A stretch of 64,000 nt of DNA, taken from the NCBI GenBank assembly GCA_977020255.1, contig CDROCS010001147.1, positions 868,001 through 932,000 of the forward strand, given 5' to 3'. Positions 35,588-58,400 of the stretch are shown in pieces. Both the position numbers and the translations under genes were made by a program. Each line of letters starts with the position of its first letter. Positions within the stretch are counted from its first letter, which is position 1. The stretch comes from Obrimoposthia wandeli (lineage: Eukaryota). The notes beneath the pieces were generated by a model. The model was not told the DNA's origin. It searched no databases and was given only the letters and a program-made list of their open reading frames with translations.

Positions 35588-36195
35588 TTGGAAGAAATAT
35601 ATCATCCAATTATAATAGGTTTGCAAGAAACGTGCAATAAAAAAGCAGGTTCAGACATATATAAAGAAGATTTTACAGAATACAATTTCAGTCTAATGAA
35701 ACTCGTAAATATAAATTATAAAGGTAGAACAGAAGATGATGTTTCGTACTTACCATTCAATGAATGGAAGCCGAGACAATATGTAGAAATGTTTGACAAT
35801 TTCACAGTTGTTATTTTTCCTACAGGTTAGTTTTTTAGTTTATTTTCATATTGAATTCTTTAGGAAATTGTCGTGTTATGGGATGCAAAATACCAATGCT
35901 TGGGTTCAATTTACCATTTGGAATTCAAATCACTGCAATACAATCAATCACGATTTCGGCTAATCTCGGGAAACAGATAAATCTTTTTAAAACTGCAGAG
36001 AAAATGAAAGAAGAATGCATGTTTGAACTAGAAATTTTTCCTGCTCTCAGTTATTTGAAGTTTAAACCGCTATGTGTAAATATATTTTCCAGTGGTAAAG
36101 TTATGATATTGGGATTGAAAAACTTTGATTATCCAGACATAGTTGATTTGATTTTAGAAAATATTTCTTATTACATCTTGTTATCTTTTCTATAA
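35588..36195 (+). CDS. Element A TBP-like (TATA-binding protein fold) gene, spliced: join(35588-35825, 35864-36195)
   Basis: Removing the 38-nt GT-AG intron 35826-35863 joins VIFPTG-NCRVMGCK (TBP repeat 1 IFSSGKMVCTGAK-like); repeat 2 FELEIFPALSY...VNIFSSGKVMILGLK matches YEPELFPGLIY...LIFVSGKVVLTGAK. Start codon uncertain. Confidence 0.85.
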
Positions 36196-36223
36196 ACAAA
36201 CCTGTTTAAACTTATTTTTTTGA

Positions 36224-36496
36224 ATGAATAATACTATAAATAGAGACAATGAAGTGGATCGGCTTGCCGACGAAATATTTTCTGGAAAAATTAGGGGTAA
36301 AGAAATGTTATCAGAATTAAAAAATAATGATATAACAAGAGATAACATTGAAATATTGGTTAGATCACACGTTATTCGAGAATTTAGAAATCGTACACAA
36401 ATAAATAAAATTATAGCCAAATATTCATTAATTAATTTTTGTATTTCATCTACAATAGCTCTAACATTGTACATTTCAATAAGGAAACTTCTATGA
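36224..36496 (+). CDS. Element A small hypothetical protein with hydrophobic C-terminus
   Basis: 90-aa ATG ORF between TBP-like and ATPase genes; C-terminal YSLINFCISSTIALTLYISI. Confidence 0.55.
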   Translation: MNNTINRDNEVDRLADEIFSGKIRGKEMLSELKNNDITRDNIEILVRSHVIREFRNRTQINKIIAKYSLINFCISSTIALTLYISIRKLL

Positions 36497-36533
36497 TAAT
36501 ATAAACAATATTAAAAATGAAAGAGTATATGCA

Positions 36534-37181
36534 ATGGAGCTAAATAATAATGCTGTATTTCAAATAGTTGGCCCAAGTGGAAGTGGAAAGACACATTTCG
36601 TCTGTAAATTGTTGCAAAATGAATCTATTTTCAAATCTAGTTTCAAAAATATTTATTTGCATCATGGTGGAGGAGGGGAAAGCGGGTTAACCAAAACAGA
36701 AGTTTGCAAGTTGAAGGGTATAAAATTTATTGAAGGATTTGATGCAAATTGGTGTGAAAGATTGAAAAAAGAAGATGTAATAATAATTGATGATTTGTAT
36801 GAGGAGGCTAACAAGGAATCGGTCTTTAATAATTTATTTACAAAGATTGCAAGACATCGTGAAGTAACAGTTATATTTATCACTCAAAATCTTTTTCACC
36901 AAGGAGGTCACCATAGAACAAGAAATCTTAATGTACATTACTTAGTTTTATTTAAAAATCCTAGAGATCAAACAGTTGTTGATTTTGTGACCAGACAGGC
37001 ATTTCCTCAAAATAAGAACTTTCTAGTTGATTCATTCCACGATGCTGCTAAACAAGCACATGGGTATATATTTATTGACTTTACACAAGCTTGCCCAGAT
37101 GATTTACGTGTTTTAACAGACATATTTAATTCTAAGGGAATAACTGTTTATAAACAAATAGAGAACAATTATAAAAAATAA
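36534..37181 (+). CDS. A32/FtsK-like genome-packaging ATPase
   Basis: Walker A GPSGSGKT, Walker B VIIIDDL, KIARH, IFITQNLF, NVHYLVLFKNPRD; intact 215 aa. Confidence 0.92.
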   Translation: MELNNNAVFQIVGPSGSGKTHFVCKLLQNESIFKSSFKNIYLHHGGGGESGLTKTEVCKLKGIKFIEGFDANWCERLKKEDVIIIDDLYEEANKESVFNNLFTKIARHREVTVIFITQNLFHQGGHHRTRNLNVHYLVLFKNPRDQTVVDFVTRQAFPQNKNFLVDSFHDAAKQAHGYIFIDFTQACPDDLRVLTDIFNSKGITVYKQIENNYKK

Positions 37182-37358
37182 ATTCGCAATGCCTTTTACA
37201 AAGTTGATAGTAAAACGTAAAGTGAAATCTAAGAAATCAAAAAAAGAATCATTAAGAAAAAAGAAGTGAAAAAATTAATCAAATCTGTAGTTAAAAATAA
37301 AAAAAACTTAAATGGCTTCGAATATAAACAATATTTAAATTAAACCTTTTTTATTAAA

Positions 37359-37687
37359 ATGAAGAAAATACAAAGAAGCATACCCTATTTTAAAGCTTTA
37401 GTCAAAGCCTCTTCTAATAAGAGAATGATTATTCTTAAAGCATTTCCATCCTTTGTTGTAGATGATTTATTGGAAGTTTTGTATAATATAGTTTTGGTCG
37501 AGTAAAAGTTGGAAATCGGAAAAATATATTAAAGAAATATAAAAAAACTCTTCTAGATATTGCTAATGTAAAAAGTAAAAAAAGGAAACGAAATATTATT
37601 CTTAAACAGAATGGTGGTTTCATAGGGGCTGTTATTCTAGTTGTTGCTTCAATTATCAGTAGTATTATAGATGCGACACGTTCATAA
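37359..37687 (+). pseudogene. Maverick small basic core-like protein (QxGGF type), one frameshift
   Basis: MKKIQRSIPYFKAL...LEVLYNIV(fs)GRVKV...KKRKRNIILKQNGGFIGAVILVVASII. Confidence 0.7.
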
Positions 37688-37773
37688 ACAATTATTTCTA
37701 AAATCAGCTAAAGATATGGGTGCTAACTCTTCTTTACCTAAACTTAAATTTTCTTTCTATTCAAATTGTTGTA

Positions 37774-38802
37774 ATGGAGAAGATATGGTTCAATCCAAAA
37801 GATCCAATTGGCTACACAGGAGTTTCAAAATTAGCAAAAAGAACAAAACAAAATTACAAGAAAACGCAGAAATGGCTGAGCAACCAGTTAACCTACAGTC
37901 TGAACAAGCCGATGAGAAGAAGGTTTCCAACTAGAGTTTACAAAACCAGCGGTCCTAATAATTTATGGCAAATGGATTTGTTGGAGATGATCCCATATTC
38001 TTCCATTAATAAGGGATATCGATATATTTTAACATGTATTGATGTATTTAGCAGGTTTGCTCGTGCAATTCCAGTTAAAGCAAAGTCTTCAATAGCTATG
38101 CTTGAAGCCATTAAAGAAATATTAAAAGAGGACATTCCACAAAATGTGCAAACTGATTTAGGAAAAGAATTTTATAATAAGCAAGTTCAATCATTATTTA
38201 AACAAAATAATATAAATCATTACTCTGTGTTTTCACAATACAAAGCAGCAGTAGTAGAAAGATTTAATCGTACTCTAAGAGATCGAATAAAAAAGTATTT
38301 CACAAAAGAAGGAAATAAAAAATGGATCCAAGTTTTACCTAAAATAATACATGCATATAATCACTATGAACATAGAGGTCTCAAGGGAATGAGACCTGTT
38401 GATGTTACTAATAAAAACTCTATGGACATTTGGATGAACAGGAATAAAAAAGAAAAAATTAAAAAAGCTAAATATAAGAAAAACGAATATGTTCGAATTT
38501 CGAAAATTAGCTCTACTCCATTTATTAAATACTTTGATCAGAATTGGAGCGATGAAATATTTTGTATAAGTAAAATTGATCAAAAGAGTAATCCAATAAT
38601 GTATACTATTAAAGATGCTGACAATAATATCGTTCACGGTAAATTTTACGAGCAAGAACTACAAGTAATATCAAATAAACCTAGCGTTTTCCGTATTCAA
38701 AAAATATTAAAATCTAAGGGTACAGGTAAACATAAACAATACTTTGTTAAATGGCATGGTTATTCAGACCCAACTTGGATATCAGCATCTAATATAATAT
38801 GA
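37774..38802 (+). CDS. Retroviral-like (rve) integrase with C-terminal chromodomain
   Basis: WQMDL, YILTCIDVFSR, QTDLGKEF, VERFNRTL (D-D-E intact); QYFVKWHGY chromodomain; ORF open; likely start MEKIWFNP. Confidence 0.95.
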   Translation: MEKIWFNPKDPIGYTGVSKLAKRTKQNYKKTQKWLSNQLTYSLNKPMRRRFPTRVYKTSGPNNLWQMDLLEMIPYSSINKGYRYILTCIDVFSRFARAIPVKAKSSIAMLEAIKEILKEDIPQNVQTDLGKEFYNKQVQSLFKQNNINHYSVFSQYKAAVVERFNRTLRDRIKKYFTKEGNKKWIQVLPKIIHAYNHYEHRGLKGMRPVDVTNKNSMDIWMNRNKKEKIKKAKYKKNEYVRISKISSTPFIKYFDQNWSDEIFCISKIDQKSNPIMYTIKDADNNIVHGKFYEQELQVISNKPSVFRIQKILKSKGTGKHKQYFVKWHGYSDPTWISASNII

Positions 38803-39830
38803 AGTCTATGTATATGGTTTTACCAAGTAACGGATGTCCGAAGATTCAACCAGATAATTACGCTAGTAGCTTTATTGTCGATTGGGAAAATCCTATAAAT
38901 CTCCAAGGAGAATGGGAAGCGGCTTTAACCGAATTTTCTTTTTATTATTCTCAAATTACTATCAGATAAAACTCACATATTTCGTTTACAAAAGAAGTTG
39001 ATCATGAAAAAACAACTGAAGTTGTAATCGGGTTTGATAGTAAAAGAAAATTCTTTTACAATTGTATAGATAAAGAAGTGAAAGTAATATATGAAAAAAA
39101 CAAAGTCAGATTTAAAAATCGATCAAAACATTTTCAACCTATTCAAATTATATTCGAATCTGGAAAAGAAGCTCTTCAATTCGGTTTTGATAGTAGACAT
39201 GTAGTAGGTATGAAGAGATCTGATATTGTCTCATCTAAAATGTTTAAAAATGTTCCTAGTAGAGTAGTAAGAGTGTTGTTAGTTGAAACGAGACCAAAGA
39301 CTGTAGTGGAACTGAAAATGTTTTCAAAAAATTATAAAATAGATAGTGAAGTGAATTTCTGTAAATTAATACACAAGGAATGTAGTGAATATTTGGATAA
39401 AAGTGAAACATTAAAAAATGGTAAAATAACGTTTACAGTAATGAGCAATATAAAACGAGTTTAATTTGATGATAAACTCGCTAAAAACCTTGGTATAAAC
39501 AGAAATACCTTTGAAACCCATACAATAAAAACCATAAAAGCTAAAAATAAGGCAAAACTTTTAAATGATGTTAATCATTTATATATTTATACTAATTTAA
39601 TAAAACCAACGCTTGTTGGAGGACAACGAGTTCCACTTTTGAGAACAATATGGATATCTAAAAATGAAACTAAAGATGGTGACGCTGTCGGTATGTGTAT
39701 AGATCAACCAATGTATCTTCCAGTTGCTCTCTTTTCTATAAACAATATTGAAGTAAATATTAGAGATAATTCCGGACAACTAATAGATTTCACGTACGGG
39801 GCCAAGACAAGTTAAACAATACATTTAGGA
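38799..39830 (+). pseudogene. Minor capsid (penton-like) protein with three in-frame stops
   Basis: YMVLPSNGCPKIQPDNYASSF...PINLQGEWEAALTEF and LYIYTNLIKPTLVGGQRVPLLR...NNIEVNIRD; ATG overlaps the integrase stop (ATGA). Confidence 0.85.
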
Positions 39831-39837
39831 AAACAAA

Positions 39838-40190
39838 ATGGCGAATCCAGCCAACAAGGTGGATAATTACCATATTTTGTTGGTAAACAATACGGATCTG
39901 GCTGGCTTAGAACATTAGGTAGATTTGCCTTTCCTCTTTTAAAGAGACTCGGGCGATTTATATCAAAATTAGGAAAGGATTACCTTTCATCTAATGACAA
40001 TAAACTAATACCAACTTTTAAGAAGCATGCGCTTGATGAACTTGATAATGTTTTACTTGAAGTTGCTAATTTGATTAGAAAACGTAAATCAAATAAAAGC
40101 CAAGGAGGTAGTGGATTTAAAAGTAAAAAGAAGCTAAAAATTAATATAAACAAACGTAAGAATGTTGAAGGAACAATATTTGCAAAATGA
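39838..40190 (+). pseudogene. Maverick conserved small protein with amphipathic helix after a GxG motif, frameshifted
   Basis: KQYGSGWLRTLGRFAFPLLKRLGRF...SQGGSGFKSKKK; stop overlaps the major capsid ATG. Confidence 0.7.
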
Positions 40191-41416
40191 GTTGCGCCAA
40201 AACTGAATTATGTATTTTTGATAAACCGCTTCCACAAGTAGTTGTAGATAATGCTTCCTTTGAAGAAATATTCCTAGTTAACTCAGTTTCAGGAACCACT
40301 TTAATCGATTTAGAATTTAATATTAATGGTTCCAATAGCGAGTATTTAGATTTGAATGATACTTTGCTTTATGTTCAAATAAAAGTATTAAATCGGGATG
40401 GTACTAATTTAGATGAAAATGCCGATGTAACACCTGTAAATTATCTCTTTAATTCTTTATTTAATGATGCCATTATTACTCTTAATAATGTCAAAATTGA
40501 AGGTGGAAATTCTTCTTATGCTCATAAAGCTTTGATTGAAAGTCTTTTGAATTATAGTACTGATACTCAAAATACTAATTTGGCAACCATTGATTATGAT
40601 AAAACTGTTGCAACTCGCTAAGAATGGATTGCAGGTTCTAAAGCTTACGAAATGTGTGGGTCTTTGAGATTGAATTTCTTTGAAAAACCGAAATATTTAA
40701 TTCCCGGTGTTAATGTACATCTTCGTTTGAAACGTAATAAATGGAATTTTTCTTTGATAAGCACGGACATTCTAAAACCTAGACTTGATATTTTGGATGC
40801 AAAATTGTATGTTCAAAGAGTTAAAACCGAGCAATCAGTTTTAATGGCACATAATATAGGAATGGAAAAAAACAATGCTTGTTATCCTATTAGAGAAACT
40901 AAACTTATATCTTATTCTTTAGGTACGGGTACACAAGCTTTTAATAAGGATCAAACTTTTGGTGATGTAAGATTACCGAAATTCATTTTAATTTCTTTTC
41001 AAAAAACTGCAAAGTTTCTATGAAATTATACGACAGATGCAACTAAATTTGACAATCTTAATGTTGGTTCAGTGACACTTTCAAGAAATACTGATTATCG
41101 TGAAACATATAAAACATATTTCGAAGGTAACGCTTATGCTTTGGCTTATACCCAATCTATTATTCGGAATTTGGGTCAACTAGATAAAAATATAAACAAT
41201 GGTACTTCTTTCACTGACTTTAAAAACAGCTGCCCGTTCTTCACATTTGTTTTGGCACCAGACTTTGATATAAACCAATGCCAACTACCAAAGGATGGAA
41301 ATTTACGACTAGAAATTAAGTTCAATGCAGCTTTAACAAATCCTACTACGGTGCTTATTTACGGAGTATTTGATTCGGAAATACAAATCAATAAAAACAG
41401 AACTGTCATATTATAG
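40187..41416 (+). pseudogene. Major capsid protein (double jelly-roll), one in-frame stop and a frameshift
   Basis: KTELCIFD, LEFNING...YLDLNDT, KYLIPGVNVHLRLKR, LPKFILI, FDINQ...GNLRLEIKF...VLIYGVFDSEIQI; position between small core genes and protease is typical of Mavericks. Confidence 0.88.
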
Positions 41417-41417
41417 A

Positions 41418-41798
41418 ATGGAGTAAGACATATTTTAAATTTATATTTATTAATTTTTATTTAGTTCAAAACAAGTAAAAGAATCAGCAGAGAAGGTCCT
41501 GGGTTATAAATTCAATGGAGTTTATCCTATTGATATGATTCCATTTTTTCAATCAGGAGGTTACATTATCAATACTCATACTTCGAATTTACCAGGAGAA
41601 CATTGGATAGCTATTTATGTTAGAGAGTGGACAATACATGTATTTGATCCACTTGCAATGTCTTATCCCCACAAACTTGTTTCAACTATTCAAAAAGGAC
41701 GAAGAAGAGTATTTTACAACAAGATACAATATCAGGATCCTGCAACGAGAAACTGTGGACATTTATGTATTTTATGGTTATCGTTGCAAAACAATTAG
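41418..41798 (+). CDS. Adenain-like cysteine protease, spliced: join(41418-41422, 41465-41798)
   Basis: ATG GA|GTaaga...tttttatttAG|T (42-nt intron) gives MDSKQVKESAEKVLGYKFNGVYPIDMIP...; catalytic motifs GEHW, VFDP, YQ, NCGHLC. Confidence 0.88.
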
Positions 41799-42071
41799 TG
41801 TGTTATAAAAATAAAAATTTTAAATGTTTTATTTTGAATTATTTTTTAAATCTCTAAAAATAAAAGGGTAAAATAATAAAAGACATAAGACAATTTTTTT
41901 AATACATTTATTAATCACAACATCACAAAGAGATATGTCAGCAAAGATAAGGCATATTAAATAAGGTCCATCCTAAAAAAGTATTGAAATAACAAATAAG
42001 TTAGAGTCTAGGTGCCATAGGGATCTAAAGTTTTAAAAAACTAAACTAAAAAATCAAAAAATGAAAACCGT

Positions 42072-45000
42072 TTAAATTCTGAAGTGTCCATAAGCCAGGC
42101 TAGCGTTTTTTTCTACCCAAAAGCGCTTGTCGTCATTACTACTCAAAGCGATTTTGGTTGATTTATGGGAATACAGTTGATGGGCTCTTGAAATAAATCT
42201 AGTTTGCTCAACGCTTTCAATACACCCAGTATCATAAACTTTCCGGTAGGCCTCATGTGTAAGATTGTTTCTTCCCACACCCTTTGCTCTCATTGAACAT
42301 GTATTATTAGATGCATGTAAACTGTAGCATTTAGGGCGTAGGAAAATACAATCATCATACGAAACCTGTCCCTCGCTTTCATCCTTAAATTTCCCGATAA
42401 TGTCCTTTAAACTCATAGAGTGTAGAGAATGGTTAGCGGGATATTTATGGGTATCTAGTAAGTTGTCCCTAAACATTGCTGGTAATAATTGATTATTTAA
42501 ACTAACATTCCTACATTCTAAAAAGAAAGAGTCAGTGTCCCCTGCCGCGATTTTAATCTCACAATTAAATTCTTGTCGGTATTTCTCCAATTCTATGTAT
42601 TGAAGCTCATACATTCTGAGTTTAGAAATGTCTAAAACCGTTTGACCTATATAACTCGGTCGATCGAGACAAATACTCTGTTTTCCAAATAACACTGCTA
42701 CCAAGTCATCTGCAATTGTAAAACTACGCTTGAAGTTGTACTTACTAGTATATGTTATTAGTTTACGCTCATCATTGCAAAACCGTAGAAAAATAAGTTT
42801 CCGCAAGTCCTCTACAGTTTTTCCAAAGAGACTATTACTTTTTAACTTGTAAAAATCTCGATCGAATTTGCTAGTGGCCAAATTACGTTTTCTTGAATTC
42901 TTCTCAATATAGTCTTTAAACACAAAGTTTTGACTGAAGCTTATAGCACGATGAATTCGAGTAACTTTCGCTCCCAACTTTAAGTAGAATTGAAGAAGCC
43001 GCCAATGCACAACATAATTCAACTTGTCTTTATGGGTTAACAATAATTTCTTAACCTTTGAATTAGGTGGGCATTGATGAACAGGCGCTACTGGAAGATC
43101 ATCTAATTTATCATGCACATTGGGAGGGATTTTTATGTCCACCTCAACCAAATAGCCGACGTCGGATGAAACTGTATCAACAGTAGCCAAATCTGTCATC
43201 AACTTATTCAACTGATCCACATCATAAACCCACTTAAAGTTGGCATGAGGTAGAGGTTGAGTAAGCGCCCACCCATACAAATTATTAATATCGATGTACA
43301 GAATCTCCGTGGATTGATTTTTGACAACATGATGTTTGTTGACAAAAGTCATTCCACCGCGTATACCATTATCATACATTTGATACATCGCGGGATCTTG
43401 CAGTAACTCGATATTAATTTTAAGAGTTTTTATTGCTGTTGCCCATGAAAGACCAGGTAAACTAAAGAAATGCATGGGATCTAGCCCATCTTCTGCTAAA
43501 GACTTTACACGAAAGGACTCAAAAACATCAGCTAAAAGATAAATGTCTAACTTCATATAATAAAGCATATATTCTAAAAGATTTCGACAATTATTCACCC
43601 AAAATGTACGGGCCTCATTATAGTCTTAAAGACTTACACTTTCAAATTCAGTTATGGGTGGGATTTCAGTTGTATTTTTTAAATCTGCGAAAGTTTTCGC
43701 AAATTTATACGGAAAAATCCCCTTATCGTTAACCGAAGCTGGGAACACTGACTGTGTAATTGGCCATGCATTTAATGATGCCGTTAAATTTTTTAAAGAC
43801 CCGCTCAAAAACTGCAGAGAATCTATGAATCTTAAACTGCAGAATTCAGTATATGCAGTTAAAGATAAATATTTCTCTGAAGTTTGAGGTATACATGAAA
43901 TTTCCCAAGAGCTTAAAGTACCCAACGCGTATTTAAGTATATGATGCAAATCATATCCTTTGAGGTTATGAAACACGATGGGAATGCGTGGTTTTTTAGG
44001 GAGACGACGGCCAAGGTTACAAAGGTTGCACGCCGCTCCCAAGTATCGCCCCGTAATATGATCGTGATCTCTGACTAACTTAGACTGGATTCCACACAAA
44101 TAACATAATCTACAAGAATTAAAATTAACCCAGTCTAGGCCTGTCATGATCATTGCTTGCTGAGCATTGAGATCATACCACGGTTTGACAATTGTTGTTC
44201 CTAATTCCTCTAATTTTAACATAAAATCTAAAATACAATTTGGACCGGAAAATTTATGATACTGGGTAATATTGGGGCCTAAGAATAGTAGTCCTGCCGA
44301 AGCCGGTAGGTGAATACTCTCATACTGGTCGTGCAATACTAAAATTGACTCAAAATCTGCATACATCCTGAATTCCATGGGTATGCATTTTGCCCAATCC
44401 CTGAATTTTAAATCCTTATCCTTAGGCATGCTATAAAGCGTATTGTCATCAGGATTCAGTGGACATAATGTCAGATGTTTGCTGTAAGAGAGCTCGGATC
44501 GGAATCCATGCAAACATCTATGACACCACTTATCCTAACCGGTAAGGCTTCATTATCTAAATTTAGAAGACGATCTAAACTGGGAATTGCAGCATAATGG
44601 AATTTATTATTCTGTTCGAGAAAAATTAAGTTGACCTGAGTCCCCTCATTTTTGCTCCTATAAATTACATCTACAAAAGGATTTTTAAATATTTCTTCGT
44701 CTGTTACATTAACTGGGATATCAGTATTATATTTGAATACATTAATACTCAAGTTATTAAGATGTTCAAATCTTGATATCGCAGTTAATTTAACAGGAAA
44801 ATCTATTCCATGATACTGCAATTCATTTAAAAAAGGGATATATTTACTGACACGCTCTCTATGTTCAGTAATTACATCCCTTTTGAGGATGGCCAACACG
44901 CTATACAGAAAGCAAAGGTTATCACTGTTTTGTACGTTAACAATGGAACGTGAAAGTTGAAGAGATCTAGGTGAAGGAATGTATGAACTCCCCGAAAGAT

Positions 45001-46513
45001 ATATAATGTCAGTGAACTTAGTTAGAACAAAGCTAACATCGTGAATTCTAACTAGAGTCCATCCACTACTTAACTCGCTATAATTAGCAATTTTTTCATC
45101 CAGTTTCTTCCAATTTCAGTTACAAAATTATCATAAAAAACAGTTGCTTTATGTGAAATTACCCAAGTTTTAGTTTCCTCATTGACATTTTTAAACTGCA
45201 CTGTTGCGCAAAATTGAACCTTAGCCTGTCCTAATTTAGTCAATTCTGATTTTAAAAGATTTTCAATATTTGAATCTACACCTACGTTTAATAAAATTTC
45301 ATTTCCTAATGGCACCTTAACTATAACATATTTATTATTTAGGTGATACTCTATAGTAGCACCGTTTTCTCTACGTTTTTTTGGTGGGACCTTATTAAGA
45401 AATTGGCCTCGCCTCTTTCTTCCGTTTGTCGCTGACAAACCTCCCCCTTATTGAACGGGAAGACAACTATTTATATTAATAGTTGAGACAATCGCAGTTG
45501 AGGTTGAAGGTGCTGCTATTGAACATGCTGCCGATGTTGAGGCAATTGCAGCTGAAATGGAAGCTGCTGCTATTGTTGATGCTGCCGATGTTGAGGCAAC
45601 CGTAGCTGATGTTGAAGGGGCTACTGTATCAGGTGCTGCCGATGTTAATGAGACAGTGGCAGTTGTAGAGGCTGCATTTGAAGCTGACCTTGCCGATGAA
45701 GAAGCGGCTGTTGTAGAGGTAAGTGCTGCTGAAATAAATATATTAAAAAAATAAATATATTTTTAAAAATTATTACTTCTAAGGCGTGCTAACATCGATG
45801 TAGGCACTCGCGATGGTGGAGGCATTTCTGTTGTAGCAGATGACGATTGTAGAACGCTATTTCCTGAATAAAAAACAAAAAATAAAATATATATATTAAA
45901 AACTAAAATATATAATTAAAAAAAAAAACAACTAATGATGACAATCCAAGTTGAGCTGGAATGAAGTCCTCTTCATTGATGGAATCCATCCAGCTGTCGT
46001 CCGTTGACTCGACGAAATCGGATTCCTCGATGGTCTCCAACCATGAGTTATCGCTCCACTGCTCTATCTAGAAATCTGACTGGGATATGTCATTCATCCA
46101 CTCATTGTTAGACATTTGAGTGGATGGGTCAGAATCAGGAGCCGGGAGACCAATCTCAGGACCGTAAAAGGGTTGATCGACTGCAACTGGAATTGGAGCT
46201 GGAGCGGCCTGCGAATCGCTCACCAATTGCATGATATCTCTCTTCTTATTGTTGGCCGTGAAACACGATAGATGAGCTCGATGTTCACTGAAGAAGTCTC
46301 GAAACTCCTTCTCCTCCATTGTTCTGCAGAAGGGGCAGACAAAGAAGTGAAGCCCGCGAGACTTTGTCCGGTAGTATGCAGACATTGTCTCCATGCAGGT
46401 CTCTCCTCCATGTGGAGCCGAAGCACCACAATACGCAGGAAATAGGTTACAAGTAATCTGAAATAATAAATATTAATAAGGAAATAATAAAAATAAATTC
46501 TTACCATAGACAT
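42072..46513 (-). pseudogene. polB: Protein-primed family B DNA polymerase of element A with zinc-finger/low-complexity N-terminus and endonuclease VII-like insert; spliced and decayed
   Basis: YADFES, FHNLKGYD, LDIYLLADVF, IRGG, YIDINNLYG, KLKSNSLFGK, GDTDS, RPKCY; RDHDHITGRYLGAACNLCN insert; 5' introns 46458-46504, ~45864-45932 and 45729-45776; in-frame stops and frameshifts. Confidence 0.93.
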
Positions 46514-46551
46514 TATTTCAAATTGTCGGGGATTTAAATGAAGAAAGTGTT

Positions 46552-46564
46552 TGCTTATATACTA
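46552..46564 (-). promoter_or_regulatory. Conserved TATA-like box TAGTATATAAGCA upstream of element A polB
   Basis: 38 bp upstream of the ATG; identical 13-mer at 55421-55433 and 53062-53074. Confidence 0.65.
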
Positions 46565-47338: not shown

Positions 47339-47629
47339 TTATGTGGAAGGACCCTCTTCCGGTTTAATCTGGAGGATTCGCTTTCTTGCTGCTCGCCGAA
47401 CATCCTCCGTCTCTTCTCTTCTTTTTTCCTCTACCTTCCTTTTTTCCATTTCGATTTTCTTGTTCCACTCCACGACCCGACGTCGTTCTGCTAGCCGCCT
47501 GTCCTGAATCTCCACCCGACGATTCCACTCGGTCGCGACAGCAGTATACAAATTCTGGTTGAGGATCCTCTTTCGTAAGTCTTCTTTCTTCTCATTTATT
47601 CTTATGTTTGCCTCGATATTCGTCACCAA
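47339..47629 (-). CDS. Element A highly charged, predicted coiled-coil protein
   Basis: 96-aa E/R/K-rich ORF ending KPEEGPST; start uncertain. Confidence 0.55.
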   Translation of the reverse strand: MVTNIEANIRINEKKEDLRKRILNQNLYTAVATEWNRRVEIQDRRLAERRRVVEWNKKIEMEKRKVEEKRREETEDVRRAARKRILQIKPEEGPST

Positions 47630-47942
47630 ACTTTGCTATTTAATAAATTCCATTTTTTAATTATGAAGATGTTAATAAATTTGAACCTATATATATAAAT
47701 TTAAGATATTTTTAATCCAATCACAAGCAATTAAAATATATTTATCAAATGAAAGTTTAATAAATATATAACTAATCATTGCATTTATATTTAATCCTAA
47801 AAATTTTTAATTATTCCTTAATAATCCAATCACATTCGAATAAGTTAACTTTATTTTTAATCTTGTTATTTTAATAAACTTAAGGAGGATATTTTAATAT
47901 TACTAAATTCTAAAATAAATAATAAAAAGACAACACAAGAAA

Positions 47943-48569
47943 CTAATTTTTGTAAATTATATTTTTGAAAATCCTTACGAAGTCTTCATTGGGATCATCC
48001 GGATCGAATTCCCTCCGACATAGTATAATTGGAGAAAGCGGTACTGGCTCCTTCTTCTTTGGCCGGCCCGGTTTCTTTTTCGGCTTCACCGGTTGCTGTA
48101 CAGCAATTGTCCTTCCCTCAGGTTTTGGCAAAAGTTGACGCAACCTTTTGGGAAGAGATGCAGCCGATGTTGATGGCCCTGTCATAGAAGTCATCTTCCT
48201 CTTCCGCGGAGCTTTCTTCTGTTTCTCCTCCTTCTCACGTTGAAGCTGGCATGAGACGGCATCCTGTTGCCCACGCGAATCTAGAAGCATTGCCGGTGAA
48301 TCCAGTTCCGCTAGGAATTCATCCAATCCAGCGTCATCCCAGGCCCTCTTCAAGTTCTGGCTGGTTGTTGGATGAGGAGAAGCAGTCTCATGCAGACGTG
48401 GTTGACTCGAAGGCGGACTTATCTCGATCGGCGAGACTGGGATCCTCTCATATAGGATTGGCCCATCGTCCACTGGAAATGGGAAAATCTCCTGCTGGCC
48501 AATCACCGCCTCAGAATAATGGCCAATTGAGGTGCGAAGTGTGGTTGTTCTAATATATAAAATATTCAC
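47943..48569 (-). CDS. Element A disordered nuclear protein with AT-hook-like motif
   Basis: GC-rich ORF; acidic WDDAGLDEFLAEL, NLS-like PRKRK, KKKPGRPKKK; 5' end probably spliced. Confidence 0.65.
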   Translation of the reverse strand: MNILYIRTTTLRTSIGHYSEAVIGQQEIFPFPVDDGPILYERIPVSPIEISPPSSQPRLHETASPHPTTSQNLKRAWDDAGLDEFLAELDSPAMLLDSRGQQDAVSCQLQREKEEKQKKAPRKRKMTSMTGPSTSAASLPKRLRQLLPKPEGRTIAVQQPVKPKKKPGRPKKKEPVPLSPIILCRREFDPDDPNEDFVRIFKNIIYKN

Positions 48570-49086: not shown

Positions 49087-49171
49087 TTCTATTTTAGTAA
49101 CATACTTTAAAACTATATATATTTTTATCTAAAGGTTGTATTAACACGCGGTCTTCACCAAAAGACATATC

Positions 49172-49577
49172 GTGTGTGTGTCTATGTTCAGGCTTAACTT
49201 ATATAAATTATTTTAACTAAATTCAATTAAATTATCTACTTATAAAAAAAGTATTATATAATTTGATAAATATGTTTAAAAGTTCGTGTATCTCTCTAAC
49301 AAAGACAGTCACGTACTGCATCTATATTGCAAATACTTACATCTTTATGTAATCAATAGTAATAAGTCACGTACTACATTTATTCTTATACATGTATGTA
49401 TGTGTGTGAGTGTCTAACAAAGACAGTCACCAATACCTACAAGACAGTCACGTACTGTATATATATAGCAAATACTTGCAACTTTATGTAATTACAAATT
49501 CTTTGGAGGTTTTGGTAAAAAGTTTAGTTTTCTACCAAGATAGGATCCATTTAAACTGCACTTACAACTTTATGTAA
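49172..49577 (+). repeat. Left TIR of element B
   Basis: Near-identical to the reverse complement of 59777-60181; several internal aagacagtcac and actttatgtaat motifs. Confidence 0.93.
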
Positions 49578-49845
49578 TTTTACAAAAATATCAAGCATAC
49601 CATCCCCTTTTTGTATACCTCTTATATAATCCACATTCTTTTTCTTTTTATAGCATTTTTATCAACTCTACCAAACCATCTATCTAACAGATTTCCTACC
49701 ATCATATGAATAGCCAAACACTCCATGATTTTATTTTTCGACTTTGATGATTTAGTAGGTTTTTTAGTCATTTTCATTATAAATATTATTAAAGTATCAC
49801 TATTGTTTATATATATATAAAAATAAATACAAAAGACACAAAATC

Positions 49846-50127
49846 TTATTTGTCAACTCTAACAGCTTCAATTATTTTCCATATCGGAGTTTCCAATCCA
49901 CTAATTGCACCGATATTGCATCCTTGAATTATGATTGAGAGAATCCATTCTAATTTAAGAGGAGGTCCATCGAATATTGTTCTATTCTCCTGCTTGAAAG
50001 TGGCAGTTGATTCTTTGATTATGAATTTGTTTTCCTGAAGCGCATAGTTGATTCCGAATTGAATCGAGAGAATATTGATTCTCTCTTTATCCACCAAAGT
50101 CAAATTTGATATCAATTTCAAAATCAA
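49846..50127 (-). CDS. Element B hypothetical protein
   Basis: 93-codon ORF just inside the left TIR; no recognisable motif. Confidence 0.35.
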   Translation of the reverse strand: MILKLISNLTLVDKERINILSIQFGINYALQENKFIIKESTATFKQENRTIFDGPPLKLEWILSIIIQGCNIGAISGLETPIWKIIEAVRVDK

Positions 50128-50771
50128 ATTTAAGCGGCTCGATGTTTTCAGGAAAAATAAAATTATAGTTATGAGCTTTTTTCAAAAAGTGCATCTTATA
50201 TCCATAATATGTATGCATAGGTTGATATAGCTTTTCAAAATTCATATTTACAATTATAAGTTGAAATATTCAATTGTTTATCCTCTAAAGCTCAATTCTA
50301 ATTAGTAGATATTCTTGTTTATGAAAATCGTTTAGTATTAGTCATATCTTTAAAGGGCTTACGTTCTTCGGTTACGCGCGTAGTACTTGTTATTGTTTGA
50401 CCCGATAGATTAATATTTTCTCTCTGATTATTTATATTATAATTCATATTCGAATATCAATTACTACCAGAACCTATATATGTACTAGCTCTACTTTGAT
50501 TATTTTGATTATTTTGATTATTCATTTTCAATAAAATCATTATCAAAATATTGTTTATATTGCTTTATTCTTAAGACAAAGACATCACATGACATTTCTT
50601 CTAAATACTAAGAATGTTACTAAAATATATATTAGTTATTATATATGCTAAACAATTAATACATTCAATGTTGTTATGACTACTAAATTTTTTGTACATT
50701 ATGTTTCGGAAAATGGAGAACTCACCATTAGACGACGACGTTTTGACTAGATTTCAAGAAGAAAGGAAGAT

Positions 50772-51677
50772 ATGATATATGAGCGACATAGATTTGATAG
50801 ATTACAAGCAAAGTTTACTGGTTTAGCGGATAAGAGAGATTTAGCAAAAGCAGGATTTTATAAGCACGATGATTCAAAAGATAATCTAAAGTGTGTTTAC
50901 TGTTTTGGAGGAATATCGGAATGGGAGTTCTATCTGAAACCAATGAAGCAGCATATGCTATATTTCCCAACATGTCCGTTTGTTTTGAAAATGAATGTAT
51001 CAAATATACCAATAATTGATTCCAGCATCAAGCAAATTGATTTTGATTCAACTCCAATGGATAAAGTAGTTATTGTACGCAATAATTATTCTAATGATAT
51101 TGAAATACCTACATTATCGATTTTCCCTCATGTATATATTTGGAATGATTCTTATCGATATTGTTTCTGTCAGAAAGCAGTACCCCGACTTGAGTTTATT
51201 GATACTATGCCTGAAAGAATCTTTCATACTCGAGATTGTAAAGCATCTATTATGGAAATCAAGAATAGATGTATTGTTGAATATCATATTAGTAATTATG
51301 AAATTGATGCTCATATGGAAACTCGTCAAATAGTTTTGCTGAAACGTGATTATAGCCATGATAGAATCAAAGCCGTTTTAATTAATAGGTTTAAAACATT
51401 CGGTAATAATTATGATTCTATATATGAGTTTAAACCAGATTTAAGATCTTTAGAAATAAAATCTGAAACAAAACATCGTATTAATTATCTCGAGTACCTC
51501 TTACCAAATCCCGAATGTATTGTTTGCATGACTGATATTATTTCCGTGGTATTTTTACCATACGGACACTTAAACACATGTATTAAATGTTCAGATCGTT
51601 TTATTTCATGTCCATATTCCAAGACAATTATCATTAGACGAGTAAAAAATATTAGATTTCATAGTATAGGCAATTAA
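50772..51677 (+). CDS. iap: Inhibitor of apoptosis (one BIR plus C-terminal RING)
   Basis: BIR LAKAGFY...CVYC...W...H...FPTCPFV; RING CIVC...FLPYGH..TCIKC...CPYS with two expected cysteines substituted. Confidence 0.88.
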   Translation: MIYERHRFDRLQAKFTGLADKRDLAKAGFYKHDDSKDNLKCVYCFGGISEWEFYLKPMKQHMLYFPTCPFVLKMNVSNIPIIDSSIKQIDFDSTPMDKVVIVRNNYSNDIEIPTLSIFPHVYIWNDSYRYCFCQKAVPRLEFIDTMPERIFHTRDCKASIMEIKNRCIVEYHISNYEIDAHMETRQIVLLKRDYSHDRIKAVLINRFKTFGNNYDSIYEFKPDLRSLEIKSETKHRINYLEYLLPNPECIVCMTDIISVVFLPYGHLNTCIKCSDRFISCPYSKTIIIRRVKNIRFHSIGN

Positions 51678-51749
51678 ACAAAGATACGTAATCTAAAAAT
51701 ATATGTTCAAATAGTATAAATAGAAGAAATCAGTTTATAATAATCAGAA

Positions 51750-52184
51750 ATGCTACTTCACAATATAAAATTAGTGAATATTAATTACAAGGGAATGGTT
51801 GTAAGTAACATTCAACACTTGCCATTTCTGACTTCGAAAGCCTCATCAGTATCGACTCAAGTGTGAAGGTTATACTATTATCATTTTCAAATCTGGTAAT
51901 TTATTTTTACATTTAAATATAATTATAATTTAAGCACATGCAGAATAAGGGGTTGTAAAACAGTGCTGGATGAAAGCACTCTTCATTTTGATATAAAAAT
52001 CGAAAGAATCCAATCAATCAGTCTCAGTAGCAATCTAGAAACATCAATAAACCTGAGCAAGATGAGCAAGAATATGGGTTCGGAAGCTGTTTACGAACCA
52101 GAAATCTTCCCGTGACTTCGATACGTCAAGTACAATCCACTATGCGTGAACATTTTTGCGAGCGGGAAGATTATTATTACTTAG
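51750..52184 (+). pseudogene. Element B TBP-like gene with intron 51896-51934, decayed
   Basis: KLVNINYKG identical to A; IIIFKSG|GT..39 nt..AG|TCRIRGCK; YEPEIFP*LRY...VNIFASGKIII; stop and frameshifts. Confidence 0.85.
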
Positions 52185-52373
52185 TGTTAAATCTTTAAAT
52201 TATGAATATCTGATTGAATGTATTTTGTTTAATATACATATTCACACTTGTGTTATATTATGTGGCAACAACAACAACAGTTATGAGAAGAGAAGAAACT
52301 ATTGATGAAGTGATTATAGAATTAGTAATTATAGATCCGATTATTGAAGAAGATATGAGATTTTTTTAATGCT

Positions 52374-52918
52374 TTGGCTTTTATGGAACCCATAATAGCT
52401 CATGCTTCCAGTATGGAGATGAACCACATGACCCATCTTTTTGATAGTTTGTTTAGTGCTAGATTTACTCAATTTAATGTAGAAAAGTTAAACAAAACAA
52501 AAATGAGTGAGATTTTAGTAAATCAATTATATATTGGTTATTATCGAGATGGGTTTGATGAAACTACACTTTTGAACTCCGATTTCACTCATGTAATCAA
52601 TACATCTATACTGGATAAGATATCTTATAAGAAATTAAAATATACTTATGTCTTTGTAAACTCAAAAGAGGAGAAACAATAATGAGATATTATAAACAGA
52701 CTAATAATATAATTAAAGAAACTATCGAAATTGATGGTAAGATTTTAGTATGTGGTCATTATGGTAGTTTACATGCTGCTTGCATTGTTATTGGATTTTT
52801 ATCTCATTCGATGGGTGTTACTGCTGCTTCCAATCTTGTTAAAACTAAACGGACTATTGCTGTTCCTAATGAAGCTATGCTTCATCAAATACGCATTTTT
52901 ATTCGTTATCATGTATAA
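52374..52918 (+). pseudogene. Dual-specificity phosphatase-like gene lacking the catalytic HCxxGxxR motif, split at a TAATG overlap
   Basis: QLYIG, FTHVIN, KILVCGHYGSLHAACIVIGFL (aligns with VLVHCxxGxSRSATIVIAYL), KRTIAVPNEAMLHQI (KRxxxxPNxGFxxQL). Confidence 0.75.
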
Positions 52919-53280
52919 ATTTTATTCGTCTTTATCTTTATTAATCAGTGTTTTTTATTAGTAAGTGTCTTTATCAGTCAGTGTCTTTATTAGTCAGTGT
53001 CTTTATTAGTTAGTGTCTTTATTAGTTAGTGTCTTTATTAACCAATTAGATTTCAGATGTATAGTATATAAGCAGATTACATTTTACTGCTTCTGGTACA
53101 GCAGCTTCCAATATTATTAAAGCTAAACGGACTATTGCTGCTCCTAATGAAGCTATGCTTCATCAAATACGTATTTTTAATCGTTATCATGTGTAAATTT
53201 TATTCGTCTTTATCTTTATTAATCATTGTCTTTATTAATCATTGTCTTTATTAGTTAGTGTCTTTATTAGTCAGTGTCTT
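52821..53280. repeat. Duplicated phosphatase 3' end plus 16-bp agtgtctttattagt(c/t) tandem repeats at a rearranged junction
   Basis: ~130 bp from ~52821 repeated at ~53098; 16-bp arrays at ~52960-53040 and ~53220-53282. Confidence 0.85.
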
Positions 53281-54414
53281 TATTTTCCGGAACATCTTCT
53301 CCGGATTTAGAATTCAATATAAATGGATCAAATACTCAATATCTTGATTTGAATGATAGTTTATTTCTCGTTAAATTGAAAGTTACTAAGGAAGGAGGAG
53401 GTAACTTGGATGATGATTTGGATATCAAATTAGCTAATTTCAATTTTCATACACTTTTCAAGGATGTGATTCTCAGTCTCAATAATGCGAAAGTTGAGGG
53501 AAATAATACTAGTTACACCCATAAAGCAATGATTGAAACATTACTGAATTACGGTAATGATACGAAATTGATTAATCTTGATGCAATTGGGTTTGATAAT
53601 GATGAAAAAAGAAGAACAGCTTCCATTGCAAAGTCTAAATTATCGTCGCTTTGTGGGAGTTTCCATTTGGATTTCTTTAAGCAACCAAAGTATATTTTAC
53701 CCGGTGTAAGTGCACATAATCGAATGAAGAGAAATCCAGTAGGTTTTAGTGTTGTTTGCGATGATACTATTAAATCAGCAATTGAGATTACGGAAGCAAA
53801 ATTGCTGGTTTGTAGAGTAAAAGTGGAACCATTTGTACTCGTTGCACATCGAATAGGGTTATAGAAGCAAAATGCATGTTATCCTATTAGGAAAAACTAA
53901 TCTTGTTTCTCATGCTATCACTACGGGAGCACTATCTTATTACAAGGAACAGATTTTTGGAGATATGCAAATTCCAAACTTTGTTTTAATTGCTTTCAAA
54001 AACACGTCTACCTATGGAGGTGAGTCTAAAAATGAGGTTTCTCAATTTGGACATATGAATGTGAGTTCAATTAAACTAGCCCAAAAAATTTATTATCAAG
54101 AAACTTATACGAATGACTTTGAAAATAATGATTATGTGTTTTCTTATGTGCAATCTTTAATTAGAAATCTTGGTCATTTGGATAAGGATGCTAATGTTGG
54201 AATTTCAATGACTGATTTCAAAGACAAGTATACACTGTTCACATTTGTTATCTCCCCTGATTTTGATATAAATCAAGCTCAAATCCCTAAACAGGGAAAT
54301 TTTAAAGTAGAAATCAAGTTTACAAAAGCACTTGAACATCCTACTAATATTATAATCTACGGAGTATTTGATTCTGAGGTTCAAATTACCAAGGAAAGAA
54401 CAGTACTAGTATAA
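53274..54414 (+). pseudogene. Element B major capsid protein, 5'-truncated, with stop and frameshift
   Basis: LEFNINGSNTQYLDLNDS, KYILPGVS, FDINQAQIPKQGNFKVEIKF, IYGVFDSEVQI; clear paralog of 40187-41416 missing the KTELCIFD-type N-terminus. Confidence 0.88.
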
Positions 54415-54449
54415 ACAAAATGAAAACAATAAAAAACAAGAAGATACAA

Positions 54450-54819
54450 ATGAAGTAAGTTAGTTTGAATGAATTAATTAATATATAATCTAGTTCGGAC
54501 GAGATAACAAAAAGCAGAAGAAAACTACTCGGTTCGCGTTTCAATGGAGTCTACAGTCTTGATCATATCCCATCTTTGACTCGTCTAGGTGGATATGTAA
54601 TCAATACACATTCATCTAATTTGCGCGGTGAACATTGGATTGCAATACATGTTAAATAAAATGAAATATTTGTTTTTTACACCTTTGAGATATTCTAAAT
54701 TAGTATATACAGTACTTGACTCTGGAAAGAAAGTACATTTTAGTAAGAAACATTATCAAAATGTTTTAACACAGTCATGTGGACAACTCTGTCTGCTTTG
54801 GTTAAAGCATAAACAATAA
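54450..54819 (+). pseudogene. Element B adenain-like protease with intron 54455-54493, decayed
   Basis: ATG AA|GTaagt..39 nt..ctAG|T gives MNSDEITKSRRKLLGSRFNGVYSLDHIP...GEHWIAI; later stop and frameshift; QSCGQLC. Confidence 0.85.
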
Positions 54820-54829
54820 ATATAAAAAT

Positions 54830-55280
54830 ATATCAAATAAAATTGAAGCTTTTATTGATAATAATACTGAACTTGTAATAAATAACTATGCATAATGGAT
54901 ATGGATGCAATCTTCTATCCTAAACATTATGTTTTTAAAATGCAACCTATATGGGGTATGATGAATATAAAATCAAGAAAAATAAATAGATATCTCATTA
55001 AGCATTACCATCGACTAAAACTAGTTGATGGTAATATTTATTTCAAGATAAAAGAAATAACTGAGGAAATAAAACATTGATGTGATGTATCCAAATCAGT
55101 TTTCTTTGTTTCATATGAATATAATGGAGCTAAAATAAAGACAATCAATAAATATTTTCCAGAATTTAGAGTGATAAATTACTCGAAAACATTAAAACAA
55201 TTAAATCTATCAAATATCAATTATCTATATATTAAACATGGAGAGCTTGTGCATACAAGAAATGCTTTGCAGCTAGTTTG
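54830..55280 (+). pseudogene. Element B DnaQ/DEDD-like exonuclease-fold homolog, decayed
   Basis: IEAFIDNN..(fs)LCIMD..FYPKHYVF...NRYLIKHYH...INKYFP aligns with the A gene at 46714-47185. Confidence 0.6.
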
Positions 55281-55339
55281 AATTATTTAAATATTAATGA
55301 AAAATCAACTACTTACATTAATCAGTAAACTATTTTGAA

Positions 55340-55433
55340 TTTTGATTGGATTAAATAATAAATGAATCTGATTGGTTTAAATTATGAATGAATCTGATTG
55401 AATTAATACTAGTTCGAAAATAGTATATAAGCA
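55340..55433 (+). promoter_or_regulatory. Putative element B polB promoter: ATTGG boxes plus TAGTATATAAGCA
   Basis: ATTGG at ~55345 and ~55371; 13-mer at 55421-55433, 44 bp before ATG 55478. Confidence 0.6.
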
Positions 55434-55477
55434 AGCATCAATCAACAAATAACTCTATATTATAAACGAAATTGAAA

Positions 55478-58400
55478 ATGGTAAATTTCTTGATATTTTT
55501 CTGAAATTTTTCTAGAATTGCAACATGAATAAACGATTATGATTTGAGGAGAGTCACAAGGAATGTGATTTGAAAATGAAGAGTTGCTTTGGGCAGAAGT
55601 TCAATGGACAACTCTTCTACGTCTGTCCAGTATGTCTCTCCGCGGAGGAGATTGATTGGTTGGAGTTTGTGGCGAGTCATCGCACCCATCTTCGGTATTT
55701 TCAGCAACGTGGCAAGAAGGTCATCGTCCAGGATAGAGCTCACAGTAATATGACTGCTCATCCTGCTACCATTTCTCAAGATCTCAAGTTGCTGCTTCTT
55801 CGCCAATTATTGCACCAATTGCTGGTCCAGTATCTACTCCAATTGCTTGTCCAGTATCTACTCCAATTGCTGCCCCAGTTGCTGAACCAGTTACTTCTTT
55901 AATTCATGCACCAATTACTTCTCCAATTGCTGCGCCAATTGCTTCTCCACCATCTGCTGTACCCCCTACTGTGCTTCCAGCTATGTTTCCTCCATCAACA
56001 GTTGGTATGATCCCTATGCCGTTACCAGCATCTACCCGCAAGAGAAGTGTTATGCCCACTTCAGGTAGCTCTGTTGCGAAGTTTCCTAGGGTTGATGTCG
56101 TTAAGCGAAAAACTAGTTTTCGGGGAAAGATTGAGACATTGTCATTAGATATTTCTAATGACAATGTCATTGATTTACAAGTTCCCGAGTCACTTTTGAC
56201 TAGCTTAACGGATATAGTCAGCATGTTTGCGACTTGTAAGGTATAATTCGGGGTGCGTGTTGAATTTTCCAATATTGGAGAAACACGTGCTTGAAACCTT
56301 TTTTTTAGAGAAACCTTTTTTCCAATAGAGGGCTCCCCATAGATGAGGGATTTATTTGATGCGGGAGTAGATGGGATCAATAAGAAGATTGAGAATTATT
56401 CCCAGAGTAGCAGTAATTGGGTAGTGAACCGCTTCCTGGAGATTTCGTTTGTTGTGACTAAAACAACAACAATGAGCTATCTCCAGGGGGTAGTTTTATA
56501 CCTACTCCATCTGAGTTAGCACTCTCACATTGCGTTATCAATGTGCAGAACTCTAACACTTTTTGCTTCCTTTACAGTATCTTATCTGTACTTTTCCGCA
56601 AAGTATTTCGCTCTAATCCTCATCGGATTAATCAATATGATGCCCTGTTGAGTCAAATAGTTTTGGATGAGAATGAGATGCCGATGCGTCTATGTAATAT
56701 ACCGCGATTTGAGAGAAAGAACCCATCTCTCTCAATCAACTTATTTACATTCAATAGGTTTTCAAATGTGCAAACGGATAGGGATATCTTTAAAAATCCC
56801 TATGTGGATGTCATAAACAGAACCATAAACCCGGATCTAAGCAAATCAATCTTCTCATTTTAGAAAATAATGATAATTTTTCTTATCTTGGTATTCCTAA
56901 ACTCAATAGGCTGCTTAATTATAGGAACAGAGGTGTATCTAATCGCATCCAGGATACTTGGTGCCATAAGTGTCTCCATGGGTTCTGAAGACCGATAAGT
57001 TACGCCAAACACGTTCCGCTCTGTAGGATGAATTTAGATCAACACTTTATTCAATACATACAGAGAAGCATATTGAGTTTAAGGACTTTTCAAAAACTAT
57101 TTCTCCGCCTTTTGCTCTTTACGCGAACTTTAAAGCTGTGCTGCCACCACATGGAATACATAATCAGATTCAGCTTCCAATCACGGCCGGCATGCTCATG
57201 TCTCCTGTAGCAGCCACGACAGGGTACACACATGATTACTCGGTCTTTACAGAGGAATCTTGTGTGGTATCCTTTTTCTCCCATAGTACAAAAAGCATGC
57301 GATCGAGATGATGCGACAACTTACAGGTATCGAGTTTCAATGCCACAAGAATCTGTTACCTGTGTAAGAAGAAACTCACAAACAAAGTTCGAGATCACGA
57401 TCACATGACGGGCAAGTACCTCGGAGCAGCGCATACGAAATGCAACTTATAAAGGAGATTGAATCGCTCTTTACCCGTCAATTTTCATAATTTGATGGGT
57501 AATGATATGCACCACATACTGAAACACGCACTGTGCAAGTTTCCTGGCTGGAATGTCTCTGTTATACCTCAATCAACAGAGAAATTTCAGGCTATGATGG
57601 TGTATATTGGAGGAGTCTGTATTCGCTTTATAGATTCCTTGCAATTTTTGAACAGCGGACTTGAAAAACTTGTGGATAACCTGGGTGTGACTCCTCTAAC
57701 ACATTTGGTCTTTCTGCAACATCTGGTAAGCGCTAAGGGCATCTTCCTATACGATATGGCAGTGCCGCCAAAGTGGGATGAGAAGATCAAGCCAGCACAA
57801 TATGAGATGGCGACGATGGTCTAGACTCAGAGCGACTGCTCATCGCTCTGGGACTATATGCTGGTCTATACGAAGATGGACGTCTACCTTCTAGCAGATG
57901 TGTTTACAACATTCCGGACCAAGGCCATTGCTGACGATGGATTGGAGCCGCTTAATTTCTTCTCCATCCCTGGTTTGTATTTTACTATTTTTTTCTAAAT
58001 AAATTTTCATTAAGTAATATTTATTAAGTAGCTTTTAACTAAATAATAATTTTCACAAAGTAATGATTTTCACTAAGTAATGATTTTCACTATGTAATGA
58101 TTTGAATAAAGGTTTTATTTCTAGGACTGACTTTTGCGAGTGCTTTCAAGTCACTACTTCACCCGGATTCTTCTTCTTCTGCTCATCCTGTATGAGTCGA
58201 GCTAATCCAGGATCCGGAGATGTACCGTCTCTTCCGCTACGGGATTCGTGGAGGCATGACCTTCGTGAATGAACACAAGGTGGACGAAATCAACGGTACT
58301 GAACTTTTGTACATTGATGTAAAGAATTTGTATGGATAGGCAATGTCCCAGTTTTTACCTTGTGGTAACCTGTCCTGTGTGACTGATCGGTTAGAGTTGG

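Follow-up and report, generated by a model that had tools for sequence, protein, structure and literature searches.

Short GT...AG segments interrupt the protease, polymerase (pPolB) and TBP-like genes of Polinton/Maverick elements in a stretch of Obrimoposthia wandeli DNA. They belong to core genes of a single clade of these elements and are very probably U2-type spliceosomal introns, likely gained in the viral lineage. The stretch, called the window in the following, comprises 64,000 nucleotides (positions 868001-932000 of contig C1147, CDROCS010001147.1) of an AT-rich eukaryotic assembly of 1.35 Gb, and its elements A, B and C each represent a decayed copy from a high-copy Polinton/Maverick family. 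Actin, myosin and IAP genes of the assembly point to an animal. An earlier note on this DNA had proposed short spliceosomal introns in viral genes, which is the best reading with regard to position, register and continuous homologues. The segments are a genuine feature: direct checking found all six of those listed in the note in place, each starting with GT and ending with AG, with a GC content of 8-20%. As intron boundaries, five of the six hold, whereas that of the TBP-like gene of element B (51896-51934, 39 nucleotides) is off by one.

The protease is the strongest case of the three genes. In element A, an intron of 42 nucleotides (41423..41464, plus strand) follows the start codon at 41418 and precedes exon 2 of the adenain-like protease (41465..41798, plus strand, 110 codons), the homologue of which, P0009, matches Peptidase_C5 clusters of Preplasmiviricota. 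The intron of element B (54455..54493, plus strand, 39 nucleotides) likewise follows the start codon. In element C, a fragment assigned to family D, the corresponding segment lies at 61172..61210 (plus strand); the donor noted earlier at 61172 is real, and most sister copies have a GT...AG segment of 38 nucleotides, while the start codon and the acceptor of the window copy have decayed. All of these introns are in phase 2, and the site, five bases past the start of the ATG, is identical in five families of this genome. A protease-alignment scan of metagenome contigs yielded 33 loci, and among the 27 with a covered 5' end that were examined, three have a segment at the same site, namely L208 and the pair L212 and L215, which represent one lineage. 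The assembly contains no close match to either lineage (best 65-85% over partial stretches). The intron lengths are 42 (A), 39 (B), 40 (B2), 38 (D/E), 40 (F), 42 (L208) and 43 (L212/L215) nucleotides, and four of these seven are not multiples of three.

The boundaries of the protease intron can be fixed to the base, because the proteases of three other metagenome loci (L207, L209 and L213) read from Met into the same residue without an insert and in exact register. The unspliced frame consists, in all seven lineages, of Met, one residue and a stop at codon 3. Exon 2 has 110 codons in intact copies of families A, B and D, and in those copies of B and D that were checked it is devoid of Met. Without splicing, ordinary initiation could therefore not yield the protease in these two families. 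Of 150 representative protease homologues, the N-terminus is short in 106, and four (P0005, P0006, P0008 and P0014) have an AT-codon-rich extension, the terminal Ser of which is located at the start of exon 2; these four may be read as gene calls that run through the same intron. A scan of viral contigs gave distant matches only (8 loci, about 30%). Intact continuous homologues had been named as evidence that would speak against introns, but this test was mis-set: homologues of that kind do exist, lack the segment and speak for introns. Similarly, the claim that the introns make these genes invisible to annotation based on open reading frames was overstated: stop-to-stop open reading frames in combination with Pfam find TBP and pPolB, and the protease is truncated or mis-started in such annotation, not invisible. 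As protein collections contain protease entries that are cut short or translated through the intron (the latter in 4 of 150), calls of a missing protease in Polintons may need rechecking. The start codon of the protease abuts or overlaps the stop codon of the capsid gene in A (window 41413-41422), in D/E and in F (L138, L280), which places the splice donor 1-7 bases from the capsid stop.

It has to be kept in mind that the GT...AG motif by itself is weak evidence in AT-rich DNA. A generic scan for this motif found three sense matches on the plus strand of A versus a null mean of 2.3, and six sense versus eight antisense matches in B; applied to the ATPase, integrase and capsid genes, it revealed no convincing intron. 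At one fixed site, the chance of GT...AG ends is about 4.7e-4, as calculated from the pooled interior composition. The strong evidence lies in position, the identical protease site being kept in seven lineages with interiors that mostly align no better than shuffles. The description of the intron sequences as unrelated is borne out for most interiors, both between different sites and between different families, but B/B2, B2/L212 and F/L212 do align (the segments were compared with each other, with no genome-wide search of host introns). Removal of the segments restores a continuous homologous frame, as judged against family D and P0002 for the TBP-like gene, against L207, L209 and L213 for the protease, and by the phases for pPolB.

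The ends of the segments are also those of U2-type introns, with GTRAG-like donors and T-rich YAG acceptors. All 13 representative segments are of the GT...AG form, with the donors GTAAG (8), GTAAT (2), GTTAG, GTGAG and GTAAA (1 each), and a YTRAY motif, a candidate branch point in this AT-rich background, is present in 8 of the 13. Counted only over the copies in which the site was located, the GT...AG ends of the protease intron are retained in 20 of 21 copies of A (31 loci supplied), 8 of 9 of B (20 supplied) and 30 of 33 C/D loci. The respective values are 19 of 20 in A (38-40 nucleotides) and 18 of 20 in B (window copy included) for the TBP-like gene, and 8 of 9 in A (19 supplied), 8 of 8 in B (20 supplied; 39-44 nucleotides) and 24 of 25 in D for pPolB.

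In the TBP-like gene of element A (plus strand), exon 1 (35696..35825, 43 codons and one base) aligns with the N-terminus of the continuous P0002 and of family D, the intron (35826..35863, 38 nucleotides, phase 1) is situated inside the Gly of an IFxxG motif, and exon 2 (35864..36195) matches PF00352 (E 1.5e-10). The intron of element B (51896..51933, plus strand, 38 nucleotides, phase 1) splits the same Gly. It had been supposed that the B copy needs one extra base, resulting in 39 nucleotides, but the segment has 38 nucleotides and GT...AG ends in the 18 copies mentioned above, and the acceptor has decayed in the remaining two, the window copy among them. Nor is this intron start-proximal, as had been assumed; it lies 43 codons into the gene. 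It is exact in position and limited to families A and B, and the gene is continuous at the site in 29 of 30 loci of the family D set (the remaining locus is an A copy with a deletion) as well as in E, F, P0002, L213, L214 and L217. A precise intron-loss copy was not present among the eight family A loci with an unbroken tblastn match, seven of which have imprecise deletions while one keeps a 39-nucleotide intron, and pattern scans for P0001 and P0002 found no relative. Inheritance of the intron from a host TBP gene was considered and rejected: the host genes are continuous at that site and have short introns of their own (47 and 48 nucleotides) at other places, so the viral TBP intron is not host-derived.

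The pPolB gene of element A, on the minus strand, contains three introns. Intron 1 (46458..46504, 47 nucleotides, phase 0) follows three codons. Intron 2 (45864..45931, phase 1), the donor of which has decayed in the window copy, is a GT...AG segment of 57-116 nucleotides in five measured sister copies, and intron 3 (45729..45776) has 48 nucleotides and is also in phase 1. The latter two, which the earlier note had missed, lie in a linker and are followed by the last exon (42072..45728, PF03175, with stops and frameshifts). The phases of the three introns lead into a long open frame in three of the five measured sisters, the other two being exon-frameshifted; three further copies lacked anchors. 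In element B, the intron (55481..55515, plus strand, 35 nucleotides, 39-44 in sisters, phase 0) directly follows the ATG. A CxxC domain and a low-complexity linker are encoded by the exon that follows the first intron, and in natural copies of B and D this exon continues into pPolB, which vindicates the polymerase label. The first introns are all in phase 0, two (A), one (B), one (B2) or zero (D) codons ahead of the first conserved Cys, and this intron is absent from families E and F. An exact positional conservation, as claimed for pPolB, is thus not supported: the position differs by one or two codons, and E and F are without the intron. Surveying homologous elements for the same positions, as had been proposed, gave agreement for the protease, a TBP intron in A and B only, and a shifted position for pPolB.

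In L207 (2085-3270, minus strand), and likewise in L209, a gene downstream of pPolB is homologous (E 4e-7) to the N-terminal CxxC domain; this domain is fused to pPolB in families A-F and encoded by a stand-alone gene in these two loci. The stand-alone gene has several short GT...AG segments of its own, and the lineage with the intronless protease therefore likely still uses splicing. In addition, pPolB of element A contains an endonuclease VII-like stretch (43629-44534, minus strand; PF02945, with an E value of 5e-5 slightly below the cut-off). For nematode and oomycete Polintons, bioRxiv 10.1101/2023.08.22.554363 reports an HNH domain in pPolB2. Upstream of pPolB of element A, a broken open reading frame (about 46700-47200, minus strand) resembles, by eye, the open reading frame after the protease in L208, L209 and L213; it has the look of what we take to be a DEDD-type nuclease.

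The age of the protease intron was addressed with two trees, one of the capsid alone (28 rows, with rows of fewer than 100 aligned capsid residues left out) and one of capsid and protease (15 rows). Both trees unite all included intron bearers with the intronless L207 (and L209) in a clade with 100/100 support, from which L213 and the remaining rows are separate. Within this clade, the capsids are 48-62% identical, with the exceptions of D/E (98%) and B/B2 (85%). The intronless L207 sits among the intron bearers in the best trees, and the approximately unbiased test does not reject a clade made up solely of intron bearers (p 0.19). The simplest reading, and a probable one, is a single gain of the protease intron around the base of the clade, followed by one loss or by none. 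The claim that the introns predate the divergence of these viruses has to be argued gene by gene, because the TBP intron is absent from D, E and F, the pPolB position is not exact, and D and E differ in TBP and pPolB. It is supported for the protease, the intron of which precedes the split of families with about 50-60% capsid identity, but is not supported as put for the TBP-like gene or for pPolB, which has a shifted intron that is missing in E and F.

Several points weigh against introns of common viral descent. Splicing of the segments is deduced from the sequence, and they have no clear common branch point. The retention of GT...AG ends within families mostly reflects recent copying and not selection, because the copies are near-identical. 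The pPolB intron positions differ by 1-2 codons between families, and in a tree of the TBP part after the junction, A and B group weakly (SH-aLRT, the approximate likelihood ratio support, 81), with the intronless L217 inside. Because internal nodes are poorly supported, one gain of the protease intron and a gain followed by a loss are indistinguishable. Finally, any benefit of the introns is a matter of speculation.

Some of these points would agree with real introns that were gained repeatedly at favoured sites, either start-proximal or of the G|G proto-splice type, instead of descending from one ancestor. Repeated gain would explain the pPolB positions 1-2 codons apart and their absence from E and F, the restriction of the TBP intron to A and B with its weak tree, the intronless L207 among intron bearers, and the mostly unalignable interiors. 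However, short AT-rich introns diverge fast, so that unalignable interiors are to be expected at 50-60% protein identity. Furthermore, the protease intron lies at precisely the same nucleotide in the seven lineages that have it, it is missing from the more distant loci examined, and it is limited to the one clade with 100/100 support. Repeated gain is thus rather unlikely.

It is clearly less likely still that the segments are not introns at all, and instead AT-rich spacers or decay products, with the proteins being started at a downstream codon or produced by recoding. Such GT...AG motifs are common by chance in this DNA, in B and D a Met is reached 4 to about 20 codons into pPolB exon 2 at the latest, and splicing is known here by inference only. 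Against this, the TBP segment interrupts the protein after 43 codons, within a conserved motif, exon 2 of the protease is without Met in B and D, and removal of the segments agrees with continuous homologues to the base. In addition, the segments are found family-wide and are not specific to single copies, and their lengths suit neither coding inserts nor a single fixed frameshift. The least probable explanation, insertion of host introners after integration or capture of host genes, is suggested by the match of the intron sizes to the host and by the introners that populate integrated maverick-polinton-like elements of dinoflagellates, mostly post-integration (PMC11957031), but the segments are not one repeat family, the same site is used in elements absent from this genome, the host TBP genes are without the viral intron, and protease and pPolB are viral core genes, so that it is already largely refuted for the protease.

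If the segments are spliceosomal introns gained in the viral lineage, transcription of the elements would most probably be nuclear and due to RNA polymerase II of the host, the major spliceosome of which would remove the segments by intron definition, their size being that of the smallest host introns. Comparison with the minimal intron size of the host, which had been suggested as a check, gave a match: the viral segments fall into the host class of small introns (36-63 nucleotides, with 47 and 48 in TBP). In automated picks from host myosin and actin genes, a few of which are doubtful, 9 of 33 junctions had lengths of 43-58 nucleotides, and 11 further introns inside segments had 36-63 nucleotides; two contigs with these host genes also hold Polinton elements. 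Four sequencing runs of one sample over 35620-41780 showed a flat, DNA-like depth across genes and spacers and are neutral with regard to splicing; there was no intron match among the 15 joints listed, with 1,260 further joints in these runs.

The introns would have been copied along as the elements multiplied. For the protease, one gain around the base of the clade is probable, and the lineage of L207 and L209 would either have lost the intron or never have received it. The TBP intron would be younger, or it moved with its module, that is, by one gain or by module transfer. The start-proximal introns of pPolB might go back to one gain with boundary shifts or to separate nearby gains. Exchange of modules between Polinton families is likely indicated by a comparison of D (L121/L124) with E (L275/L283), which have a common capsid-protease module (98% capsid identity) and differ in their TBP-like genes, their pPolB genes and their layout.

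One evolutionary advantage of the introns, on which we can only speculate, might be that viral transcripts resemble those of host genes and are better expressed and exported and less silenced; in addition, the output of protease might be made dependent on splicing. Surveillance of intronless DNA by HUSH has been described for mammals/human cells (PMC8770142). A more far-reaching possibility, which we regard as doubtful, is that of a widespread undescribed Polinton clade with splicing built into its life cycle. In such a clade, the maturation of capsids would be gated by the host spliceosome, because the unspliced protease frame leaves a two-residue peptide, and the minimal introns of the TBP-like and polymerase genes would disguise the transcripts from surveillance of intronless DNA, aiding a very high copy number.

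Introns in nuclear DNA viruses are already known, and adenovirus genes, for example, are spliced at GT-AG introns. Within Polinton core genes, introns contradict the working description. In the main texts of the literature covered, which also included 10.64898/2026.07.28.741278, 10.1101/2024.03.25.586562, 10.64898/2026.10.13.758929 and 10.1101/2025.02.07.637071, no description of spliceosomal introns at conserved positions within Polinton core genes was found, and an earlier mention elsewhere is possible. The main texts report no introns for intact vertebrate Mavericks (PMC8097293), call the core genes of nematode Mavericks intronless, with introns only in cargo genes (the Widen preprint, bioRxiv 10.1101/2022.07.12.499685), and list TBP-like and IAP genes for Polintons/adintoviruses with no passage on splicing (PMC8502044). 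In contrast to these elements, the introns described here are present in protease, pPolB and TBP-like genes and are common across families. The introner-bearing maverick-polinton-like elements of dinoflagellates (PMC11957031) likewise are integrated and contain spliceosomal introns, but these form repeat families and were mostly acquired post-integration, whereas the introns described here have unrelated interiors, 35-48 nucleotides and a position kept across lineages of different sources. Mirusviruses (PMC12768974) are eukaryotic DNA viruses with GT-AG introns, including those in morphogenesis genes, that have been read as a sign of nuclear transcription. Their introns are numerous, peak near 80 bp in length and in some cases contain homing endonucleases, whereas one to three minimal introns per gene are found here in integrating elements of 14-15 kb. 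Cryptophyte Polinton-like viruses (PMC12220804) also have introns, but these are self-splicing group I introns of 309-376 bp in a small accessory gene and not spliceosomal.

If true, the conserved protease intron would mean that, during the whole time in which a clade of 50-60% capsid identity diverged, its elements were transcribed and spliced in a nucleus, and it would provide indirect evidence on the expression of Polinton late genes. The host range would then be tied to the ability of the host to splice introns of 35-47 nucleotides. As rare markers, the introns can serve both the tree and the tracing of module exchange, and the elements are a dated, high-copy system in which gain, loss and boundary shifts of introns can be followed. 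Polinton core genes are taken to be intronless, and on this basis surveys rely on prokaryotic gene callers (PMC10120064 and bioRxiv 10.1101/2025.04.19.649669).

The assignment of the elements is based on a Pfam run on 48 open reading frames of the window, which gave matches for TBP, A32 ATPase, rve integrase with chromodomain, pPolB and IAP, and on the Polinton/Maverick gene set of pPolB, integrase, ATPase, capsid and protease. Element A (33946..48533) starts with AGTAG at its left end, and its right terminus was not found in the window. It contains the Polinton-type polymerase (PF03175, E 1.8e-8; weak pieces are present in element B), an A32-type packaging ATPase (36483..37181, plus strand, PF04665), and a retroviral-type rve integrase (37702..38802, plus strand, PF00665, E 7.8e-13) with a chromodomain and with homologues in D, E and F; no intron was seen in the ATPase and integrase genes. 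The major capsid protein gene (40169..41416, plus strand), which has in-frame stops and no family match, was named from its position and from a homologous open reading frame in related contigs. Intronless core genes, a trait described for Polintons/Mavericks but not strictly defining, are the point in which the present elements deviate. Element B (49178..60181) is a decayed copy flanked by inverted repeats of 400 bp (91%), in which the stretch from TBP to protease is shorter than in sister copies.

Families B2, E and F are additional families in this assembly. At least 150 copies of family A (at 99% protein identity) and at least 40 copies of family B are present; A and D each gave at least 150 protein-search matches at high identity, and B and D each at least 40 DNA-search matches, so that A, B and D are very abundant. 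Inverted repeats that start with AGTAG, together with target duplications of 6 bp, were found in three of five copies examined, all five of them from family A.

Element B contains, in addition, an inhibitor-of-apoptosis gene with BIR and RING domains (window 50751-51677, plus strand). The end of the window (63160-64000) is a 95% copy of 34351-35193 and represents the left arm of another family A element, which extends out of the window. The assembly also holds bacterial-type contigs, and bacterial-type COX1 genes as judged from open frames without TGA. Tandem arrays with a strong strand skew are located at 17656-21954 and 25542-26679, with units of about 88 bp and about 95 bp, respectively.

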